DNA from: Escherichia coli
GTDB lineage: Bacteria > Pseudomonadota > Gammaproteobacteria > Enterobacterales > Enterobacteriaceae
Direction: 5' to 3' (one strand)
NCBI RefSeq assembly: GCF_003334315.1
Contig: NZ_QOWR01000075.1
DNA length: 15,366 nt
The notes under the pieces are model-generated. The model saw nothing but the letters and a program-made list of their open reading frames with translations, ran no database searches and was not told the DNA's origin. Positions 1 through 6,610 of the stretch are shown here, piece by piece; position 1 is the first letter of the stretch, and every line of letters begins with the position of its first letter. Made by a program: the position numbers and the translations under genes.

Positions 1-105
1 ATTATATCGAATGTGATTACAATCGGTGGCGGCGGCACAGTTGGTGTGGCGGCCTCAGTCCGGAACAATTTGAAAACAAGAACCTCGCTTAGGCCTGTGT
101 CCATA

Positions 106-483
106 TTACGTGGGTAGGATCAGATCAGGAACAGCTTTAACAGTAGCTTCTTGTTGTGTCTTGGCTTCTTGTCTAGCTTCTTCTTGTGGAATATCTACCA
201 CTTGATAGACATTAGAACTTCCTGGTCGTGCATCTTTTATAATTAACCCCATTTCGAGCAATTTCTTAACCCTTTCCTCTGCTGCTCTTGGTGTTATGCC
301 AAAAACATCGCCTATCTTAGCGTAAGAGGGAAATGCACGATCAAACCCTTTCAGATAGCAGTAAAGATTTTTAGCACTATCTGTAAATTTATGCCCGTTT
401 ACTTGGCTTATTTTTAGAATCCACATAGGAACTTTTACAAATTGTTCTTCATTAATCATTAAAAATCTCCTTGATGTAATCAC
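106..483 (-). CDS. HTH_36-like winged-helix DNA-binding protein, 125 aa (putative replication-initiator-like or regulatory protein of the element)
   Basis: ORF MITSRRFLMINEEQFVKVPMWILK...; the central segment SAKNLYCYLKGFDRAFPSYAKIGDVFGITPRAAEERVKKLLEMGLI has the pattern I associate with the HTH_36 family found in phage/plasmid Rep-like proteins. Strong RBS: the minus strand reads AAGGAGA about 7 nt before the ATG. Last gene of a tightly packed three-gene operon. Confidence 0.55.
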   Translation of the reverse strand: MITSRRFLMINEEQFVKVPMWILKISQVNGHKFTDSAKNLYCYLKGFDRAFPSYAKIGDVFGITPRAAEERVKKLLEMGLIIKDARPGSSNVYQVVDIPQEEARQEAKTQQEATVKAVPDLILPT

Positions 484-512
484 GCTCTATGGCGCTACTA
501 TGGTGATAAAAA

Positions 513-683
513 TCACTTGCTTTTATTTGAGAGTGTTTCAGCCTCTCTTTTCAACATATCAAGAATGTAATCTGTGACAGTGATACGTCTACTTCTGGCT
601 TCTTTAAATAACACCTGAAATACTTCATCAGGAATATGAAAGCAAGTGCGTGGTTGTCTTTTCTTTTCTGTAGTTTCGCTCAT
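513..683 (-). CDS. Small ribbon-helix-helix-like (CopG/Arc-type) protein, 56 aa; absent from the supplied ORF track (below length cutoff)
   Basis: Hand translation of the minus strand: MSETTEKKRQPRTCFHIPDEVFQVLFKEARSRRITVTDYILDMLKREAETLSNKSK, stop TGA (complement at 513-515). The pattern basic N-terminus, beta-strand (TCFHIPDEV), helix (FQVLFKEARSRR), helix (ITVTDYILDMLK) is RHH-like. Strong RBS AAGGAG 6 nt upstream; 19-nt gap to the upstream gene and 29-nt gap to the downstream gene. Confidence 0.35.
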   Translation of the reverse strand: MSETTEKKRQPRTCFHIPDEVFQVLFKEARSRRITVTDYILDMLKREAETLSNKSK

Positions 684-702
684 AGTTTTCTCCTTCTATT
701 CT

Positions 703-891
703 TTACTCTGTTTCAGATTCTTTTTCATTTTTTCTTAATTCATCAATAATCTTGAGTGCTTCATTGAAGCAAGCTGCTCGCTCTGGATAACCTCGACTCC
801 TTGCCATATTACGATTCATTACTATTTGGTGGCGTGTAAGCTCACCTTTTTTAAATGCCGCGACAACGTGTTCCGATGTGAACCATTTCAT
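703..891 (-). CDS. Hypothetical small protein, 62 aa; first gene of the three-gene operon
   Basis: ORF MKWFTSEHVVAAFKKGELTRHQIVMNRNMARSRGYPERAACFNEALKIIDELRKNEKESETE with a strong RBS (minus strand TAAGGAGTTTTTT then ATG). I do not recognise a family. Confidence 0.4.
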   Translation of the reverse strand: MKWFTSEHVVAAFKKGELTRHQIVMNRNMARSRGYPERAACFNEALKIIDELRKNEKESETE

Positions 892-1122
892 AAAAAACTC
901 CTTATTCAGTTAAAAGAAAAACACCTTGCAAGCCTGACGGCTTCAAAGTGCATTGATTTTGATTATTTAGAGAAGAATGTTTTTCTGTCCCTCTAATACC
1001 TATTATTACATATAAAGAAACATTTGTCAATACCTTTTCACAAAAAATCTGATCTTTTTCATGTACTTACATTTTTTCTTAGCAATTCGTGCTCTTCTGT
1101 GTAGTGCTATTCTTCCTTATTG

Positions 1123-1145
1123 TCTAAAACGCTCTAAAACGCGTT
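1123..1145. repeat. Tandem 10-bp direct repeat tctaaaacgc x2 running into the palindrome AACGCGTT
   Basis: Seen directly: tctaaaacgc at 1123-1132 and 1133-1142, followed by a degenerate third unit (gttctaacga). Lies in the non-coding region upstream of the minus-strand operon. Confidence 0.4.
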
Positions 1146-1461
1146 CTAACGAGGTTTTGATAAAAGCAATACATTCCCTTATGTAATGGCTGTTTAGCTC
1201 GCCAGAGGCTTATTTAAGGGGCTTATTTTGTATTTGTTAGGTATATGAAAAGGTGATGGTAGATATAAGATAGAGAGTCACTTTATAAAACGCTCTGTAA
1301 AGCCCTGTAGTGAGTTTATATATGTAGGCAATGCGTTTCCATTCCCTACCCTGCTTAATGCTGTTAGAGAAGCATTTAGACCCCTTATTTTTAATTACCT
1401 AAAGTATCCTCTATACATTCCTGTTATGAAACACCTCTGAATCCTTCATAAAACACATTAT

Positions 1462-1517
1462 GACGCAAAGAACACTTTTCTAAGGTGATTCCCTTCCTGA
1501 ATGCTGTTTCTTGCGTC
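1462..1517. repeat. Imperfect inverted repeat, 13-nt arms (gacgcaaagaaca ... tgtttcttgcgtc), 30-nt spacer
   Basis: Seen directly; 11 of 13 positions are complementary. Possible operator or RNA hairpin. Confidence 0.4.
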
Positions 1518-1560
1518 AAAGAGCTACACAGAGCTTATAAAGCTATTATTAATAATAAAG

Positions 1561-1620
1561 TAGACAAAGTAAGTAAGATAAGTAAGTAAGATAACTAAGA
1601 TAGATAAGATTAATAAGATC
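1561..1620. repeat. Degenerate AT-rich short tandem repeat (aagtaag / ataagat units)
   Basis: Seen directly: aagtaagataagtaagtaagataactaagatagataagattaataagatc. Confidence 0.6.
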
Positions 1621-1630
1621 AGAATTCTCT

Positions 1631-1660
1631 TTCGGTGTCGCCTCTGGCTTTTCCACCGAA
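1631..1660. other. Hairpin-forming inverted repeat ttcggtg-N16-caccgaa
   Basis: Seen directly: 7-bp perfect arms with a T-rich loop (tcgcctctggcttttc), located just before the first 42-bp direct repeat. Confidence 0.35.
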
Positions 1661-1663
1661 AAC

Positions 1664-1828
1664 AATTACACAACTACAGAGAATAACGAGAGTTATTAAA
1701 TGTAGAAAGTGGAATTGTATTGAGGCTTAGTGAAATTACACGAGGAAAGCAGAGTGTAATTGAGCTTTAGCCGCTCTCTCTTCGAGTAATTACACAACTA
1801 CAGAGAATAACAGAGTTATTAAATGTAG
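1664..1828. repeat. Pair of 41/42-bp direct repeats (aattacacaactacagagaataac(g)agagttattaaatgtag) about 124 bp apart
   Basis: Seen directly: copy 1 at 1664-1705, copy 2 at 1788-1828, differing by a single g indel. Each contains the short palindrome aataac...gttatt and is followed by similar sequence (gaaagtggaatt / gagggtaatt). Confidence 0.7.
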
Positions 1829-1917
1829 GAGGGTAATTAAGAGTTAGAGAGAGTTAACACATAAGCAATCAGTATGATTGGTTAGGTGATTACTCTTCTG
1901 CGCACAGCGCAATAGTA

Positions 1918-1960
1918 TTTCTTCGTGGGCGTTACCGCCAACGATAGTTACACGAAGAAA
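1918..1960. other. Strong stem-loop: 10-bp perfect inverted repeat tttcttcgtg / cacgaagaaa enclosing a nested ggcg-ttac-cgcc hairpin, within a locally GC-richer segment (about 1860-2075); candidate structured RNA or protein-binding site
   Basis: Seen directly. The 75-codon minus-strand ORF over this segment has no obvious RBS or protein-like composition, so I favour a structural element over a CDS. Confidence 0.4.
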
Positions 1961-2128
1961 GTAACGCTTTGCTTTCGGTGTGAGCGGAACGGGCCAGCCA
2001 CGAAGCCCAAAGGTAGCGGAGTAAGGCTGCTTGCCAGAGAGTGAAGCTAACGCCGGAAGGCAAAAGATCATATAAATAAATATATAATATTATAATTTAA
2101 TAAGTAATTTAATAAATGATCTAATAGG

Positions 2129-2262
2129 TAACAGAATTCTGTGGGGGTGTCTAACAGTTTTCTGTGGGGGTGTCTAACAGAATTCTGTTAGGGTGGGGTA
2201 ACAGAATTTTGTTAGGGTAAAAATCTCTTTAAAAGTTAAGATTAACAGAATTCTGTGGGGGG
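2129..2262. repeat. Repeat family A: palindrome (t)AACAGAATTCTGT(T) followed by G-runs (gtggggg); direct repeat ctgtgggggtgtctaacag x2
   Basis: Seen directly: copies starting near 2129, 2176, 2199 (degenerate, aattttgtt) and 2243, with a fifth at 2538. ACAGAATTCTGT is a perfect 12-bp palindrome, a likely dimeric DNA-binding-protein site. Confidence 0.7.
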
Positions 2263-2325
2263 TAGCTCACAGTGACCTACCCCCTAGTTCACTATGACCT
2301 ACCCCCCTAGGTCACAGTGACCTAT
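2263..2325. repeat. Iteron cluster 1 (family B): three roughly 21-bp units tag(c/t)tcac(a/t)(g/a)tgacctacccc; the third is the perfect palindrome AGGTCACAGTGACCT
   Basis: Seen directly: 2263-2284, 2285-2307 and 2307-2325; the palindrome is at 2309-2323. Confidence 0.7.
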
Positions 2326-2349
2326 ATAGTATAAAGAATATTATTTATA

Positions 2350-2377
2350 TTATTTAATTATAGTATTTAATTATAGT
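2350..2377. repeat. AT-rich 13-bp tandem repeat (atttaattatagt x2) in a roughly 50-bp A+T tract; candidate DNA-unwinding element
   Basis: Seen directly, lying between iteron families B and C. Iterons next to an AT-rich tract is the classical origin layout. Confidence 0.45.
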
Positions 2378-2385
2378 ATTGGTGG

Positions 2386-2483
2386 AACTCATTTCCTAGG
2401 TAGGTAGGAACTAATTTCCTAAGTAGGTAGGAAACCACTTCCTAGGTTACTTCCTAAATAGATCGGAAATCATTTCCTAGGTG
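2386..2483. repeat. Repeat family C: (a/c)tttcctagg(taggtagga) units at roughly 22-bp spacing (4-5 copies); contains the palindrome CCTAGG
   Basis: Seen directly: tttcctagg at 2392, tttcctaag at 2414, cttcctagg at 2438, cttcctaaa at 2451, tttcctagg at 2473. Confidence 0.6.
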
Positions 2484-2498
2484 TTATTTATACTTATC

Positions 2499-2535
2499 GG
2501 GTATCAGTTTTGATAGGGGTATCAGACTTGATAGG
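2499..2535. repeat. Repeat family D: gggtatcag(tt/ac)ttgatag x2 in tandem, 19-bp period
   Basis: Seen directly at 2499-2516 and 2517/2518-2535. Confidence 0.6.
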
Positions 2536-2556
2536 GGTAACAGAATTCTGTGGGGG

Positions 2557-2618
2557 TAGTTCACTATGACCTACCCCTAGTTCACTGTGAGCTACCCCTA
2601 GTTCACTGTGAGCTACCG
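2557..2618. repeat. Iteron cluster 2 (family B): three head-to-tail 21-bp units tagttcac(t)(a/g)tga(c/g)ctacc(cc)
   Basis: Seen directly: 2557-2577, 2578-2598 and 2599-2618, with exact 21-bp periodicity (two helical turns), as expected for Rep-binding iterons. Confidence 0.75.
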
Positions 2619-2712
2619 TTACATCCAATCATCTGTCGATGTAACATATCGTTACTACCAACTTTCTTACAAAGAGCATTTCAGATAGCTGAATGTAACC
2701 TCTCGTTACATC
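2617..2712. repeat. Palindrome-rich block: gttacatc-N12-gatgtaac, gtaac-atatc-gttac, and cgttacatcc repeated (2617 and 2703)
   Basis: Seen directly. Confidence 0.5.
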
Positions 2713-2729
2713 CATTTGTCACATAGCAC

Positions 2730-3210
2730 TCTGTGTAATGCCTTTCTATGTGTGTGCCATAATCCCCCTATATTCCCTGTGTAAATCATAGAATAATGCT
2801 CTCTATTCCCTGTGTAATTCCCTACTAAAAATCAATGAAAAAGTAGCTTAAAGTTGCAATTCTTACTTTCTTCACTTTTACATCACTTTCGCAAAGCCTT
2901 GTGTAATGCGGCTTACAGAGCACCATCAGAAATTGTTGGCTAAAAATTATTCTGCTTGTTTCTGAACGAGTTTTCTCGTTTGTGCAAATTTTAAAATTTA
3001 TTTTGTTTTTACAGCCTTATTTCGTGTAATGCGTGGCATAGCAAGCCCTTTTCTTGTGTTGTCAAGACATTTGGCAACGTTCAAACATCTGTTTAGAAAT
3101 GCCAAATTGTTGATCTAACAAATAAACCTGTATAAACAGAACACCATTTAATCTATTCCCCTGTGTATCCATTAGGCATACCAAATGAATACAGCTAAAT
3201 CGTGTAATAT
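2730..3210. repeat. Dispersed motif (c)tgtgtaat(g) recurring about 7 times, including the direct repeat tattccctgtgtaa x2 (2770-2818)
   Basis: Seen directly near 2733, 2779, 2811, 2901, 3026, 3161 (variant tgtgtatcc) and 3203. The region is non-coding and leads up to the recombinase gene. Confidence 0.45.
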
Positions 3211-3262
3211 TCCGTACCCATAAGGCTTGAAACAGACCAAATGAATACGGTATACTCATTTG
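3169..3262. promoter_or_regulatory. Putative res/hix-like recombinase binding region: duplicated motif cat(t/a)aggc..accaaatgaatac(a/g)g plus the palindrome caaatga-N11-tcatttg
   Basis: Seen directly: copy 1 at 3169-3194, copy 2 at 3217-3250, palindrome at 3238-3262 with the palindromic core gtatac. The location immediately 5' of a resolvase-family gene is where res sites sit in Tn3-family and plasmid resolution systems. Confidence 0.4.
3227..3256 (+). promoter_or_regulatory. Putative sigma70 promoter of the recombinase gene (-35 TTGAAA, 18-bp spacer, -10 TATACT)
   Basis: -35 at 3227-3232, -10 at 3251-3256, about 45 nt upstream of the ATG at 3302. The -10 lies inside the palindrome, which would suggest autoregulation. 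Sequence-pattern inference only. Confidence 0.35.
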
Positions 3263-3301
3263 CATTTAAGTAGTGCCAAATCGACACATTAAGAGGATTT
3301 T

Positions 3302-3841
3302 ATGAGCAATATCGGTTATAAGCGTGTGAGCACTGTAGATCAGAACACTGATCGCCAGCTTGCAGGAGTAACTCTCGATAAAGTCTTTGAAGATAAGCTG
3401 TCTGGTAAAGACACTAACCGCCCAGGCTTACAAGCGTGTTTAGCCTATCTGAGAGAAGGCGACACCTTACACGTGCACTCTCTCGACCGTTTAGGACGTA
3501 ACACCTTAGACATCCTTGCTTTAGTTGAACAACTTAATAATCGAGGTGTAATTGTTCGATTTCACAAAGAAGGAATCATTGCAGACATTACAAGCGCGAT
3601 GGGAAAGATGATGCTTACGATGTTGTCGGCAGTTGCAACGTGTGAACGTGAACTGATGTTAGAACGTAAACGAGAAGCGCAAGCCGTCAATCCTACAAAA
3701 CGTGGTAATGGAAAAGCAGTGGATCGAGAAGGTATAAAGAAAGCCCTTTCTGATGGCCTGTCAGTGCGTAAAACCGCCGAGAGCTTTAATGTTGCTCCTT
3801 CAACGGTGCAACGTATCAAGAAGGAAGAAGAGGAGGCGTAA
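3302..3841 (+). CDS. Small serine recombinase (resolvase/invertase family), 179 aa
   Basis: N-terminal GYKRVSTVDQ is the catalytic-serine motif of serine recombinases. Conserved blocks FEDKLSG, RPGL, LDRLGR and SAVATCERELMLER resemble the Tn3 TnpR, Gin and Hin layout. A C-terminal HTH is present (LSVRKTAESFNVAPSTVQRIKK). RBS AAGAGGA lies 5 nt upstream. Not identical to the Pin or Gin sequences I recall. Confidence 0.85.
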   Translation: MSNIGYKRVSTVDQNTDRQLAGVTLDKVFEDKLSGKDTNRPGLQACLAYLREGDTLHVHSLDRLGRNTLDILALVEQLNNRGVIVRFHKEGIIADITSAMGKMMLTMLSAVATCERELMLERKREAQAVNPTKRGNGKAVDREGIKKALSDGLSVRKTAESFNVAPSTVQRIKKEEEEA

Positions 3842-3850
3842 TGCCTCCTT
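3829..3850 (+). terminator. Possible hairpin at the recombinase stop (ggaggcg-taa-tgcctcc)
   Basis: 6-bp GC stem spanning the stop codon, followed by ttgatattt. Weak T-tract, so low confidence. Confidence 0.25.
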
Positions 3851-4077
3851 GATATTTGAGAATTGTCGCTGCGTGGACCTGACGGCGCTGATCTTCTCGT
3901 TAAGCGATGATCACGTATGCGCCGATTTCAGAGAAAAAGACAGTAACTGAACTCACTATGAAGGCTAAACGTATCTTTACACTTGATGAAAACGTTCAAA
4001 AAACAACCTAACCCCAAAATTCAACAAATTGCAACACATTGTTTTTAAAAGAAAATTAAATCTACATCAAATATTGG

Positions 4078-4106
4078 TTGACGTAGATTGAGGTGAATAG
4101 TAGACT
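4078..4106 (+). promoter_or_regulatory. Putative promoter for the small hydrophobic ORF (-35 TTGACG, 17-bp spacer, -10 TAGACT)
   Basis: Pattern match only; would give a leader of about 70 nt before the ATG at 4183. Confidence 0.25.
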
Positions 4107-4182
4107 ATTAGGGTAAATTACCACCCTTGTAACATCATTTAATGCATGTTCTAATCTTCCTATCGTAAAACCGGAGGAAGTT

Positions 4183-4341
4183 ATGCATTTACTTTCAAAA
4201 CATCTTCACACTATTCACTTTCTCGTTATTGATGTATTCGTTGTGGCTATTAGTTACCGCATTTGCATCGCTTCCAGTGAAGAGATGGACGCTGTTGCAA
4301 TTATTGCTCAAGCAATGGCGATATTAACTAAACGACTTTAA
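4183..4341 (+). CDS. Small hydrophobic protein, 52 aa (candidate small membrane protein or toxin-like peptide); absent from the ORF track
   Basis: Hand translation: MHLLSKHLHTIHFLVIDVFVVAISYRICIASSEEMDAVAIIAQAMAILTKRL, stop TAA at 4339-4341. Strong RBS GGAGGAAG 5-6 nt upstream. A roughly 20-residue hydrophobic stretch is consistent with one transmembrane helix. Confidence 0.35.
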   Translation: MHLLSKHLHTIHFLVIDVFVVAISYRICIASSEEMDAVAIIAQAMAILTKRL

Positions 4342-4354
4342 TAATTTCACTATC

Positions 4355-4398
4355 AGGCGCATAAACACATCTTTGATCGCTGGATGTGTTATGCGCCT
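4355..4398. terminator. Long near-perfect inverted repeat (aggcgcataaacacatc - N11 - gatgtgttatgcgcct) between the two convergent small ORFs; candidate bidirectional terminator or operator
   Basis: Seen directly: arms at 4355-4371 and 4383-4398, 16 of 17 positions paired with one bulged A. The position between convergent ORFs fits a terminator, though flanking T-tracts are weak. Confidence 0.45.
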
Positions 4399-4407
4399 AC
4401 TGGTGAT

Positions 4408-4560
4408 TCAATCCTTAAGCCATTTCAACTCACTAAGGAGTTTTCTTTCTTCGTTCTCTCGTTGCTTTCGCTCTAGCCAGGCTTTTCCCTCTGGCGTAGA
4501 CAGGAACTTACGAGCGTGAATCTTGCGGTTATTACGTTTTATAGCTGCAATGTTTTTCAT
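4408..4560 (-). CDS. Small basic protein, 50 aa, hypothetical; absent from the ORF track
   Basis: Hand translation of the minus strand: MKNIAAIKRNNRKIHARKFLSTPEGKAWLERKQRENEERKLLSELKWLKD, stop TGA (complement at 4408-4410). A possible RBS (AGAGG) lies upstream. I do not recognise a family. Confidence 0.3.
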   Translation of the reverse strand: MKNIAAIKRNNRKIHARKFLSTPEGKAWLERKQRENEERKLLSELKWLKD

Positions 4561-5166
4561 CGTGTTGCCTCTGTATTCATATGAAAATTAACAAGTTACA
4601 TACTACACAGGGAGACTACGCATAAAACACAATACAAGTAAAGATACATTTTCAAGACAATAGGAGCCATAAAGCGCCTTTGATGGTTATACCAAAAAAT
4701 AAGCGCCGTAGGCGTATCCACTAAAAAGGGCTTTTTCACAAAAGCTATGAAGTCTTAGCAGTTCTTCTCTTATCAGGCACCCGTTGTACTCCGGTGGACG
4801 AAACCGTGCTAGAGCTTGATTCTTTCCCGATCAAGTTAGGTTTTGAAGAGGTGGGCTTTAATCCACTATTGCACTTAAAACTCTTCCCATCATTTAGCCT
4901 GTTTATCCTCTGCAACGTCTCACGACGTGTAGCATCATTGGACACCGCGCCAGGTGTGGAACATCTTGCTAAGAGTTTTGGTAGAAGGTTTAGAGACGGT
5001 GGCACGTCTTCCAGCTTCAAAGGAACTTGTTACGAGGTTGAGCCTGGGAACTACTCGCCCATACGTGTTACACTACCAAAGCCCATAACAACGTATAGGC
5101 GTTTGTAAGTGATAACAGAAGATACAATTTCTTAGAGAAGTTAAGCTAAGTTATTGATTTTCTTGA

Positions 5167-5242
5167 TGGTGCCGATAATAGGAGTCGAACCTACGACCTT
5201 CGCATTACGAATGCGCTGCTCTACCAACTGAGCTATATCGGC
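5167..5242 (-). tRNA. thrW: tRNA-Thr (anticodon CGU), thrW-like
   Basis: The minus strand reads GCCGATATAGCTCAGTTGGTAGAGCAGCGCATTCGTAATGCGAAGGTCGTAGGTTCGACTCCTATTATCGGCACCA: cloverleaf features, anticodon loop TTCGTAA, encoded CCA. It sits downstream of proA as in E. coli. Confidence 0.95.
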
Positions 5243-5356
5243 CCTGAAAGGACATGTTCACGAACGTGAATCACGGTGGACAAGGTTAAAACTAACCGGG
5301 CGATGCGTCAATGGCCTTGTGAATCAAATGGCTACTTTTGCATCACCCGGTTTTAT

Positions 5357-6610
5357 TTACGCACGAATGGTGTAATCACCAATGCCGATCCACTTGTAAG
5401 TGGTCAGTGCTTCCAGCCCCATTGGGCCACGCGCGTGGAGTTTTTGTGTGCTTACCGCCACTTCCGCACCCAGACCAAACTGGCCGCCGTCGGTAAAACG
5501 CGTAGAGGCGTTAACGTAAACAGCGGACGAATCCACTTCGTTAACAAAACGCTGGGCGTTGCGCATATCGCGGGTCAGGATCGCATCGGAGTGTTGTGTG
5601 CCGTGTTCACGAATATGGGCGATGGCATCGTCAAGATCGCTGACGATTTTGACGTTCAAATCTAATGACAGAAACTCATCGTCATACTCTTCGGCTTTAA
5701 CAGCAACCACCTTCGCAGGGCCTGCCTGCAACTGCGCCAGTGCAGCTGCATCTGCGTGTAATGTCACGCCGCTTTCCGCCATTTGTTTGCTTAATGCGGG
5801 CAGGAAGCTATCGGCGATGTTTTTATTCACCAGCAACGTTTCAACCGTATTACATGTGCTCGGACGCTGAGTTTTCGCGTTGACGATCACTTTTAATGCT
5901 TCAGCGATCTCTACACTTTCATCAACGTAAATATGGCATACGCCTATACCACCTGTGATCACCGGGATTGTCGACTGTTCACGGCACAGTTTATGCAAAC
6001 CAGCGCCACCACGCGGGATCAGCATGTCGATGTATTTATCCATACGCAGCATTTCACTGACCAGCGCACGGTCAGGATTATCAATCGCCTGCACGGCACC
6101 CGCCGGTAAGCCACAGGATTTCAGGGCGTCCTGAATCACCGCCACCGTTGCCGCGTTAGTGCGACAGGTTTCTTTGCCACCACGCAGGATCACCGCATTA
6201 CCGGTTTTCAGGCACAGCGAAGCGACATCAACCGTCACGTTCGGGCGCGCTTCATAAATCACGCCAATAACCCCCAGCGGTACGCGACGACGCTCAAGAC
6301 GCAGGCCGCTGTCCAGTACGCCGCCATCGATTACCTGCCCCACCGGATCGGCGAGGTTACACACCTGGCGTACATCGTCGGCAATGCCTTTCAGCCGTGC
6401 GGGCGTCAGTGCCAGACGGTCAAGCATCGCTTCGCTAAGGCCATTGGCTCGCGCGTCAGCAACATCCTGGGCGTTAGCGTTGAGGATGATTTCGCTTTGT
6501 GCTTCCAGTTCATCGGCGATTTTTTCCAGCACGCGATTTTTTTCGCGGCTGGAGAGTTGCGCTAATTTATACGAGGCTTGCTTCGCGGCAATGCCCATTT
6601 GTTCCAGCAT
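5357..6610 (-). CDS. proA: Gamma-glutamyl phosphate reductase (glutamate-5-semialdehyde dehydrogenase), 417 aa
   Basis: Full-length [40 protein letters not shown]... recognised as E. coli ProA, immediately downstream of proB (11-nt gap). Confidence 0.97.

Follow-up and report, generated by a model that had tools for sequence, protein, structure and literature searches.

One known counterpart of the locus reported here is PLE, a satellite of Vibrio cholerae, in which a non-coding origin of semi-palindromic iterons is bound by a RepA_N initiator, and in which the origin and the DNA-binding domain of the initiator are exchanged between satellites as one module (Barth et al. 2021, eLife; PMC8263062). 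The phage ICP1 has acquired the satellite's domain on a T5orf172 nuclease, Odn, which was shown experimentally to need the PLE iterons in order to cut, and PLE escapes by restructuring of these iterons (PMC8263062). For Escherichia coli, a similar system has been predicted (Barth, Dunham & Seed 2023, NAR Genom Bioinform; PMC10448857): satellites of Stephanstirmvirinae phages, about 13 kb long and located beside a tRNA, with a tyrosine integrase, major capsid, tape-measure-like and baseplate-like proteins and an initiator of the RepA_N type whose N-terminal domain is modular, and phages such as Mt1B1_P17, Muut and Inny, which carry matching domains fused to T5orf172 in Odn-like RepA_N-T5orf172 nucleases. 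According to that study, homology between the second RepA_N domain of these nucleases and the cognate satellite repA could not be detected. The origin itself was left undescribed for the study's 224 elements, and the term "iteron" is absent from the full text of that study.

Parts of the same layout are known from lambda and from iteron plasmids. The locus described here shares with lambda ori and O an initiator composed of an N-terminal DNA-binding domain and a C-terminal recruitment domain, and four to five tandem dyad-symmetric sites of about 19-23 bp with an AT-rich tract next to them, without DnaA boxes. However, lambda ori lies within the O gene, whereas our arrays are situated 1.2-1.7 kb from the initiator gene, further than in lambda, in a 2.4 kb non-coding region, and no recognisable P-like helicase-loader gene is present. 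With iteron plasmids (pSC101, RK2, F, R6K) the locus has in common phased direct repeats beside an AT-rich unwinding element and a Rep gene in cis, but it differs in that each unit is itself palindromic, in that DnaA boxes and IHF consensus sites are missing, and in that the element is integrated, satellite-like and devoid of partition genes.

The window, i.e. the whole stretch of DNA that was analysed (15,366 nucleotides; assembly GCF_003334315.1, contig NZ_QOWR01000075.1), is a piece of the E. coli chromosome in which thrW lies beside proA. Because of an IS3 copy it contains just the right 5 kb of an island of about 12.6 kb (Table 1), and homology to other islands begins at 123-125. The intact island L004 shows the complete order: integrase, baseplate-like, tape-measure-like and major capsid protein genes, several small genes and the initiator, followed by the non-coding stretch, a serine recombinase and tRNA-Thr. 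Island proteins match phrog_29 (major head), phrog_16051 (tape measure) and phrog_817 (tail), and neither the RefSeq annotation nor a PHROG scan of eight island proteins revealed a terminase gene. The intact islands L004, L006 and L007 agree with the satellites predicted in 2023 in their size of about 13 kb and in the tyrosine integrase beside a tRNA; all three possess major capsid, tape-measure and baseplate-like genes and lack a terminase, a portal or a tail set. Judged by this gene content, the island at thrW is a member of this predicted family of Stephanstirmvirinae satellites.

About 985 E. coli genomes, or one in six, have such an island, strain GPEC128-620 being an example with an intact copy, and 1129 of the 1131 places at which the family occurs are chromosomal. 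An earlier note on the window, made from its sequence alone, had proposed a plasmid or phage replicon; the element appears instead to be a chromosomally integrated, phage-satellite-like island. A megablast search of 900-3300 against 72,556 plasmids returned two partial matches, one of them to a mislabelled chromosome, and a plasmid origin was rejected. An origin taken from the helper phage was likewise rejected, as a blastn search of 2100-2720 against 50,697 phage records gave no match to an Escherichia phage; at blastn sensitivity, none of these records contains the arrays. A database search for similar arrays had been recommended in the earlier note; here, 28 islands were typed. A scan of 1-5400 with Rfam covariance models (E<=1) matched the tRNA-Thr region alone, where only the tRNA reached its gathering score, and a structured RNA was discarded as an explanation. 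RNA folding of a GC-rich block at 1880-2070 gave z-scores of no more than -2.4 (plus strand) and -1.4 (minus strand).

Table 1. Positions of the features of the island and its borders within the window.
Feature	Position	Strand	Remarks
IS3 copy, terminal part	1..123	.	99.2% identical to L001 15001-15123, where an annotated IS3 transposase copy ends
Truncated initiator gene, allele a1	106..483	-	N-terminal winged-HTH DNA-binding domain kept; true start MINEEQ at 459
Island, right end	124-5166		about 12.6 kb island at tRNA-Thr (thrW); left side cut by IS3
56-aa small protein of initiator operon	513..683	-	RHH-like by eye; no significant family match
62-aa protein, first gene of leftward operon	703..891	-	no family match
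Sigma-70-like promoter of leftward operon (62-aa, RHH, initiator)	1002..1030	-	TTGACA-17-AATAAT + TG, 11/12; consensus match
AT tract left of leading array	2066..2128	.	88.9% A+T; candidate DNA-unwinding element
Family A array	2129..2265	+	5 units of about 23 bp, core ACAGAATTCTGT + G-run; putative cognate iterons of allele a1
Family B, cluster 1	2259..2328	+	3 units, core TAGnTCACnnTGAnCTA + C-run; putative cognate iterons of a3
Second AT tract	2329..2380	.	92.3% A+T; candidate unwinding element of a2-type module
Family C array	2384..2482	+	4 units, core GGAAn5TTCC; putative cognate iterons of a2
Family D	2499..2544	+	2.6 units of 18 bp, core TATCAn4TGATA; putative cognate iterons of a4
Lone family A unit	2538..2560	+	within trailing cassette
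Family B, cluster 2	2553..2619	+	3 units, exact 21-bp phasing
Family E	2617..2712	+	GTAACn4-5GTTAC units + half-sites; putative cognate iterons of a5
Promoter toward recombinase	3227-3256	+	
Small serine recombinase, 179 aa	3302..3841	+	conserved beside origin region
tRNA-Thr (CGT) thrW	5167..5242	-	chromosomal boundary of island

The region 2129-2712 comprises five families (A-E) of tandem units with palindromic cores, plus two tracts of about 90% A+T, and can be written as A5 B3 / AT / C4 D2 A1 B3 E2. The 23-bp units of family A, of the type TAACAGAATTCTGTGGGGG, start at 2129, 2152, 2175, 2199 and 2243, spaced by 23-24 bp with one gap of 44 bp. Their palindrome, which had been described as perfect, combined with G-runs and repeated five times, is indeed accompanied by G-runs but occurs in six copies, four of them perfect and two with one- or two-base variants. 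Family B matches its first description: six cores at 2263, 2285, 2308 and 2557, 2578, 2599, spaced by 21-23 bp and arranged in two clusters, the second one in exact 21-bp phase. Family C recurs as had been reported (GGAAn5TTCCTA at 2384, 2407, 2430 and 2465), at intervals of 23, 23 and 35 bp instead of a uniform spacing of about 22 bp, and family D, GGGTATCAGnnTTGATAG at 2499 and 2517, is a tandem pair with a period of 18 rather than 19 bp and a partial third unit. The fifth family, only half listed before, is family E; its cores are located at 2641 and 2695, and its half-sites are found from 2617 onward. The 13-bp AT-rich unit TTAATTATAGTAT is present between the arrays in 3.1 tandem copies (TRF) at 2341-2380.

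That this dense array is real, as the earlier note maintained, is borne out by a chance check: consensus patterns of 20-22 nt, with at most three mismatches, matched 6, 6 and 2 times for families A, B and C, versus 0.00 matches expected from 200 dinucleotide-preserving shuffles. The view that no coding capacity explains the region likewise holds, since the sole ORF of at least 50 aa overlapping it (2550-2726, plus strand, 58 aa) runs through the repeats, and the NCBI annotation leaves the homologous stretch without genes in every island fetched. As in iteron origins, at least three tandem, regular repeats of about 17-30 bp adjoin an AT-rich tract, and the initiator is encoded by the same element. 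The DnaA boxes and/or IHF site of iteron plasmid origins are not found: both the DnaA box TTWTNCACA and the IHF consensus WATCAAN4TTR are absent from either strand of 892-3301. Such an absence would be acceptable for an origin of the lambda type, unlike for one of an iteron plasmid.

The candidate initiator is a protein with a weak match to Pfam HTH_36 (1.1e-3). Its full-length homologue of 217 aa in L004 (16682-17335) matches PHROG families of replication initiation and O-like proteins (phrog_270, 7.6e-11; phrog_391, 1.2e-7); NCBIfam, a PDB sequence search and Pfam Phage_rep_O gave no significant match. Aligned with one another, the initiators share a conserved C-terminus, while their N-terminus is swappable. 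On the grounds of this remote homology the "HTH_36" protein is taken to be the O-like or RepA_N-like initiator of the island, and we infer that its C-terminal domain recruits a helicase or the replisome. In the window, IS3 interrupts the gene at about residue 112 and has removed the C-terminal half of the protein together with everything to the left of it; therefore the origin is probably orphaned and would fire only with an initiator supplied in trans. Because of this truncation the origin of the window may be inactive.

The 56-aa neighbour of the initiator had been put forward, as an RHH-like protein, as a second candidate for binding the repeats, but it does not covary with the arrays: an identical protein, WP_000005056.1, is encoded by a1 islands (L001, L004, L008) and a3 islands (L007, L009, L011, L012). 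A solitary motif of the C type, located upstream of a2 initiator genes, was considered as an autoregulatory operator, and this idea was dropped because the motif sits in an unannotated 42-codon ORF.

A correlation between the initiator and the arrays becomes obvious when islands are compared. The DNA-binding domain is modular, with five or more alleles, and every allele has a repeat family of its own (a1 with A, a2 with C, a3 with B, a4 with D, a5 with E), and in all 28 typed islands (a1 n=6, a2 n=7, a3 n=13, a4 n=1, a5 n=1) the array beside the left AT tract fits the initiator allele. Under random pairing such perfect concordance has a probability of about 7e-14, a value which ignores that the islands are related and not independent samples. 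Family A occurs in at least five copies in 6/6 a1 islands and in at most two in the 22 others, and leads the array in a1 only. Family B leads in all 13 a3 islands and is the sole A-D family in eight of them (with at most one trailing E unit besides), while family C leads in 7/7 a2 islands, where the second AT tract precedes it. In L010, the only a4 island, family D leads and is expanded to four or more units. The pairing of a5 with E was predicted before L020, the single a5 island, was inspected, and was then found: five E units form its sole family. An AT-rich tract lies directly before the leading cognate array in each of the 12 islands whose variable region was read.

Allele and array are never uncoupled, although 1.2-1.7 kb of DNA with 94-96% conservation separates them. 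The a2-C pairing is kept even in another lineage of islands, whose initiator C-terminus and flanks are different; there, L017 and L033 possess family C only, and L033, taken from more distant islands picked by 70-72% identity of the capsid gene, again carries allele a2. From island to island, single arrays are present or missing, which gives a nested series, but their order (A, B, AT-tandem, C, D, A, B, E) stays the same. Since the array family switches together with the initiator allele, the reading of the locus as an iteron-type origin with the HTH_36-like protein as its Rep, suggested in the earlier note, gains support from the PHROG matches and the covariation alike. The supposition that this protein would deal with the repeats at large needs to be narrowed: in the window, only family A would be the cognate array of the encoded protein, and B, C, D and E would belong to other alleles. 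Family B cluster 1, next to the A array, would accordingly be non-cognate here, as its presumed cognate allele is a3.

We consider it probable that 2066-2712 is the vegetative replication origin of the island, with a modular pair of initiator and array, and that its repeats are at the same time targets of phage nucleases. The initiator, which resembles lambda O and RepA_N proteins, would read DNA with its N-terminal winged-helix domain, and its dimers would bind the palindromic cores of the tandem array. A nucleoprotein complex assembled on four to five phased sites may then melt the AT-rich tract directly left of the array. The window would accordingly hold an a1 module (AT tract and five A units), three B units and a complete a2-type module (AT tandem, four C, two D, one A, three B and two E units), the extra arrays being origin modules of other alleles that have been retained or acquired by recombination.

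The second part of this proposal rests on the DNA-binding domains that the islands share with phages. The T5orf172 nucleases of Mt1B1_P17 and BI-EHEC contain an a1-type (84-88% identity) and an a2-type domain (85-90%), the former being 91-96% identical to island a1 at the nucleotide level; the nuclease of Muut combines a4 (100%) with a2 (91%), and that of Inny a5 (96%) with a2 (91%). The accessions of the nucleases are QNJ49226.1 for Mt1B1_P17, QHR65951.1 for Muut and QHR69854.1 for Inny. In all four proteins the domains are fused to a C-terminal MUG113/T5orf172 domain; hence the N-terminal domain of the initiator has its homologue in the DNA-binding part of phage RepA_N-T5orf172 proteins, as in the satellites predicted in 2023. 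The a2-type domain is common to all four and the other one is variable (a1, a4 or a5), a composition of two satellite-type domains which differs from ICP1 Odn. The second domain, for which no homology to the cognate repA had been detectable, is 85-91% identical to allele a2. With the nuclease C-terminus as query, a word-indexed protein search remained empty and an exhaustive HMMER search was required. Allele a3 was found on no known phage nuclease and is the most frequent allele (267 genomes, compared with 225 of 5,426 complete E. coli genomes for a2 and 185 genomes for a1).

As ICP1 Odn does with the PLE origin, the nucleases of Stephanstirmvirinae phages would cut the arrays, and this pressure could lead to swaps of allele and array and to the deletion of arrays. 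PLE and Odn are, however, known from experiments, whereas our evidence is computational only. Each PLE element also contains just one family of iterons, about three copies of 30 bp, in contrast to up to five families in tandem here.

Two explanations of the composite arrays go beyond our proposal. On the one hand, the composite array might be both a multi-key origin, whose five arrays could each be fired in trans by any initiator allele, and a record of an arms race, in which each array is also a landing pad for a nuclease and the loss of arrays and the rise of a3 with family B represent escape; we advance this tentatively. On the other hand, and with a similarly modest likelihood, all arrays may be functional and under selection as a "master-key" origin, replicable by any a1-a5 initiator of a co-resident or incoming satellite. 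The latter does not exclude our preferred reading and differs from it only in that the non-cognate arrays would be under selection instead of being carried along as passengers. It would account for a trailing cassette (AT tandem, C, D, A, B) that amounts to a complete a2-type origin, for the constant order of arrays across islands, for genomes with up to four copies of the island family, and for the window itself, whose origin, deprived of its initiator, would depend on one supplied in trans. In six of seven comparisons among a1, a2 and a3 islands, the trailing cassette is moreover 96.7-99.3% identical, versus 94-96% for the flanking non-coding DNA; however, this pattern would fit selective constraint or recent exchange by recombination alike.

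The extra arrays are dispensable, because 13 of the 28 islands do without them. Apart from the cognate array, none of the 13 has more than a single stray B unit and a single trailing E unit; the cognate family is A in L008, L027 and L030, B in L012, L014, L021, L022, L024, L026 and L029, C in L017 and L033, and E in L020. Added arrays would also be added targets for the four phage nucleases, each with a domain of the a2 type.

A regulatory role of the arrays is less probable than either of these and, in our estimation, unlikely: they would serve as operator or titration sites for the HTH protein, while replication would start at another site or be left entirely to the helper phage. RefSeq labels the protein a "transcriptional regulator", iteron arrays serve copy control in plasmids as well, and the arrays lie between two divergent promoters (Table 1). 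Nevertheless, they overlap neither promoter, being about 1.1 kb away from that of the initiator and about 0.5 kb from that of the recombinase, and the tract of about 90% A+T that abuts each cognate array gives the layout of an origin. The PHROG matches are to replication initiators and not to repressors, and phages have repeatedly fused these very domains to a nuclease, which in the experimentally studied parallel targets an origin.

We regard it as quite improbable that the arrays are a packaging signal (pac/cos-like) or res/inversion sites of the adjacent serine recombinase, even though the gene of this small enzyme is always beside the region and GTGTAAT motifs flank the arrays on the left (1665-1795, three of four on the minus strand) and on the right (2733-3208, all five on the plus strand). 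Arrays do not track the recombinase, because the identical WP_000065234.1 accompanies both A-led (a1, L008) and C-led (a2, L006) arrays; they track the initiator domain perfectly, and the island has no recognised terminase gene that could supply array specificity. Because the covariation is with the initiator domain alone, an integron is rejected together with recombinase sites, and so is, as the least credible of all readings, the centromere of an integrated plasmid-like element that the earlier note had offered as an alternative: tandem palindromic repeats are similar to some parS/parC arrays, but a ParA/ParB/ParM-type gene is annotated in none of the intact islands examined, and the nearly always chromosomal element comes with an integrase and a tRNA attachment site.

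Our proposal of a replication origin with modular initiator and array thus adds to what was known. The satellite family and the nucleases had been predicted before; the origin, the pairing of alleles and arrays and the composite arrays are new and go beyond the 2023 study, which did not identify the DNA target of the satellite initiators and of the nucleases that mimic them. The locus supplies a candidate for this target: five families of short palindromic repeats that can each be attributed to one initiator allele, and four of them also, via common domains, to specific coliphage nucleases. An Odn-like arms race in E. coli thereby becomes open to testable predictions as to which protein binds or cuts which 20-bp site, and a typing scheme for the compatibility of satellites and phages can be offered from sequence only. 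Stephanstirmvirinae phages are used in phage-therapy cocktails. The tandem layout of several families, together with the nested deletions, represents an unusually legible case of replication modules being swapped and pruned. If the composite arrays are indeed a multi-key origin and a record of the arms race, the specificity classes of satellites and phages would be readable directly from sequence.

The stretch is E. coli chromosome (proA, proB, phoE, crl, frsA, gpt and pepD are present), in which the right end of a putative phage-satellite-like island abuts the tRNA gene thrW. Intact islands of about 12.6 kb (L004, L006 and L007) carry, in this order, a tyrosine integrase, baseplate-like, tape-measure-like and major capsid genes, small genes, the HTH protein, a small RHH-like protein, a 60-aa protein, 2.1-2.4 kb of non-coding DNA, a 179-aa serine recombinase and thrW. 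In the window, an IS3 copy cuts the "HTH_36" initiator gene (106-483) at about residue 112 of 217, with loss of the C-terminal half, and the left part of the island with the integrase, capsid and tape-measure genes was deleted or displaced by this IS3. In APEC-type strains the island lies between yagU and thrW beside vat, an autotransporter toxin gene (L004 3445-7575); by this adjacency it appears to belong to the region generally regarded as the thrW/vat pathogenicity island.

Repeat finders and shuffles bear out the multi-family array with an AT-rich tandem that the earlier note had described at 2129-2712. Every unit of all families has a palindromic core, and a consensus search allowing up to three mismatches returned 6, 6 and 2 copies of families A, B and C; the expectation from shuffles was 0.00. 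Family B does comprise six units in two clusters, the second in 21-bp steps; other details need amendment: family A has six copies instead of five (the additional one at 2538), the period of family D is 18 rather than 19 bp, and the C units are spaced by 23, 23 and 35 bp rather than by about 22. Two tracts of about 90% A+T are present (window 2066-2128 and 2329-2380). Coding capacity, as had been supposed, does not explain the region: the sole overlapping ORF (2550-2726, 58 aa) simply reads through the repeats, and the repeat stretch is without annotation in all RefSeq genomes fetched. In the database search for similar arrays that the note called for, 985 of 5,426 complete E. coli genomes carried the island family, nearly always in the chromosome; arrays A-E were absent from all phage records searched by blastn.

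Features of the window, initiator alleles of the fetched island loci (L numbers) and phage nuclease loci
Feature	Position or locus	Description
IS3 copy end	1-123	99.2% identity to annotated IS3 in L001
Island right end	124-5166	
tRNA-Thr (thrW)	5167-5242	
Family A	2129, 2152, 2175, 2199, 2243; 2538	23-bp units TAACAGAATTCTGTGGGGGTGTC; repeat finders
Family B	2263, 2285, 2308; 2557, 2578, 2599	21-23-bp units, core TAGnTCACnnTGAnCTA; repeat finders
AT-rich tandem	2341-2380	13-bp unit; repeat finders
Family C	2384, 2407, 2430, 2465	core GGAAn5TTCC; repeat finders
Family D	2499, 2517, partial third unit	18-bp units GGGTATCAGnnTTGATAG; repeat finders
Family E (fifth family)	2617-2712	GTAACn4-5GTTAC; repeat finders
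Allele a1	window, L001, L004, L008, L027, L030	
Allele a2	L006, L015-L018, L025, L033	
Allele a3	thirteen islands	
Allele a4	L010	
Allele a5	L020	
Phage nucleases	L002 5348-6334; L005 3001-3966; L031 801-1799; L032 1001-2104	

The reading of this region as a replication origin, with the nearby HTH protein as its candidate Rep, which the note had put forward, is supported by matches of the protein to initiator families and by covariation with the arrays. The full-length protein matches PHROG replication-initiation/O-like families (7.6e-11 and 1.2e-7); Pfam gives a weak HTH_36 match only. In alignments the C-terminal half is conserved and the N-terminal winged-helix domains are unrelated between alleles, of which five were found (a1-a5), a3 being the most frequent in complete E. 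coli genomes (267), followed by a2 (225) and a1 (185).

The variable block between two conserved anchors (window 2046-2729) was printed and read in 12 islands, and a motif scan turned 28 of 28 islands into array strings. Next to the left AT tract stand A units in 6/6 a1 islands, C units (following the AT tandem) in 7/7 a2 islands, B units in 13/13 a3 islands, D units in the one a4 island and E units in the one a5 island; the last pairing was predicted ahead of looking at L020. Family A has at least five copies in every a1 island and at most two elsewhere, and leads the arrays in a1 only. The a2-C pairing is repeated in a second island lineage with another initiator C-terminus and other flanks. 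Allele and array lie 1.2-1.7 kb apart, the intervening DNA being 94-96% conserved, and perfect linkage across this distance in a visibly mosaic family argues for co-function. Under random pairing such concordance has P ~7e-14, a figure that overstates the evidence because the islands are related. No such covariation holds for two other island proteins: an identical recombinase occurs with A-led and with C-led arrays, and an identical RHH-like protein in a1 and a3 islands.

Array order is constant across islands (A, B, AT-tandem, C, D, A, B, E), each island being a sub-series that opens with its own cognate array. The window string, A5 B3 / AT / C4 D2 A1 B3 E2, reads as an a1 module, B units and then a complete a2-type module. 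Its trailing cassette shares 99.3% identity with the one in the a2 island L006 and exceeds the flanks in conservation in 6/7 comparisons, which would fit selective constraint as well as recent exchange. That all arrays would be used, as in a master-key origin, seems to us rather unlikely. Thirteen islands have no A-D family but the cognate one, or add to it no more than a single stray B unit and a single trailing E unit; such nearly single-family islands indicate which array set would be sufficient. Alternatively, the arrays might be operator or titration sites, but both predicted promoters lie far from them and an AT tract stands beside every cognate array. Recombinase sites or a packaging signal are very unlikely, since array type does not follow the recombinase and neither RefSeq annotation nor a PHROG scan of eight island proteins revealed a terminase gene; equally unlikely is the centromere that the note had offered as an alternative, no partition gene being annotated in the island.

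The a1 domain has 91-96% nucleotide identity to a gene of the Phapecoctavirus phages Mt1B1_P17 and BI-EHEC, whose product has the a1 domain followed by another winged-helix domain and, at the C-terminus, MUG113/T5orf172 (among this protein and 40 homologues of its C-terminal domain, MUG113 matched 24/41 and T5orf172 15/41 at E<=0.1). By blastp, the second, constant domain of four phage nucleases is allele a2 (85-91% identity), and the first domain alone varies between a1, a4 and a5: the Muut nuclease combines a4 (100%) with a2, the Inny nuclease a5 (96%) with a2. No counterpart of a3 was found in any phage of the collection. A second piece of DNA common to the island and the Phapecoctavirus group is window 3850-3928 (about 80 nt, just 3' of the serine recombinase gene), with about 83% identity to many phAPEC8-like genomes, in most records of which the matched stretch is unannotated.

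From the observed repeats, AT tracts, alleles, allele-array co-occurrence and domains common to phage nucleases, we infer an origin in which initiator dimers would occupy the palindromic cores within the cognate array and, assembled over four to five phased sites, melt the AT tract next to it. A helicase or replisome of the host or helper phage would be brought in by the conserved C-terminal domain. No DnaA box or IHF consensus was found at 892-3301, which fits a lambda-type rather than a plasmid-type start. The phage nucleases may cut the arrays via the same domains, and such cutting would select for swaps of allele and array and for loss of non-cognate arrays. Given its truncated initiator, the origin in this genome is probably silent unless an initiator comes in trans.

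Several further features lie outside the arrays. Window 1122-1170 contains 46-49 nt (TCTAAAACGC twice, then GTTCTAACGAGGTTTTGATAAAAGC) for which many of the 190 phage records matching the non-coding query, mostly T5-like (Demerecviridae), have a conserved non-coding counterpart of 82-92% identity; the stretch is conserved in all main-lineage islands and largely retained in the second lineage (L016-L018). Phage KPN4 (L003 3001-3046) has it next to DnaA-box repeats, within the terminal repeat's 2-kb untranslated region, which appears to be Davison's repeat region or injection-stop region (bioRxiv 10.1101/866236). GTGTAAT heptamers number 13 in the window, where 2.06 would be expected, and 9/13 lie in the non-coding region: left of the arrays (1665-1795) 3/4 copies are on the minus strand, and to their right (2733-3208) 5/5 are on the plus strand, so that the motif brackets the origin in mostly inverted orientation; another protein of the island, e.g. 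the recombinase or RHH protein, may bind it. Directly left of the origin, window 1880-2065 (47% A+T, the highest GC of the non-coding region) is nearly invariant in the main lineage and holds a terminator-like hairpin TGCGCACAGCGCA followed by a T-rich run; the hairpin is found again in the divergent second lineage. RNA folding of this block gave z = -2.4 (plus strand) and -1.4 (minus strand), it had no Rfam match, and an unannotated 75-aa ORF (1844-2071, minus) overlaps it. Two copies of a 41-42-bp direct repeat, AATTACACAACTACAGAGAATAAC(G)AGAGTTATTAAATGTAG, are spaced by 124 bp (1664-1705 and 1788-1828), the first being partly deleted in L004, L006 and L007, and a AAGTAAGAT-type tandem (1567-1619) differs in copy number among islands. 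In a2-type islands an unannotated ORF of 42 codons, MNINFDSATYNALLNRAKAEGKSIPKLVNELLITVLTKEELK (L006 9301-9426, minus; also L017), RHH-like by eye, lies immediately 5' of the initiator gene, where other alleles have a 55-56-aa RHH gene.

A precedent exists in Vibrio cholerae, where Odn of phage ICP1, a RepA_N-T5orf172 chimera, cuts the origin of the satellite PLE and requires the PLE iterons; PLE escapes by iteron restructuring or module exchange (Barth et al. 2021, PMC8263062). The element studied here belongs to a published, purely bioinformatic satellite family: Barth, Dunham & Seed (2023, PMC10448857) predicted exactly the same E. coli family with 224 elements, and Odn-like genes of Inny, Muut and Mt1B1_P17. 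They reported no detectable homologue in the cognate satellites for the nucleases' second domain; in contrast, we find it 85-91% identical to the satellite allele a2. The full text never mentions "iteron", so the origin of the E. coli elements is not described there, and our literature search found no later paper on them. To that study our analysis adds, besides the origin itself, the pairing of five alleles with five arrays, the composite layout and the identification of the constant nuclease domain.
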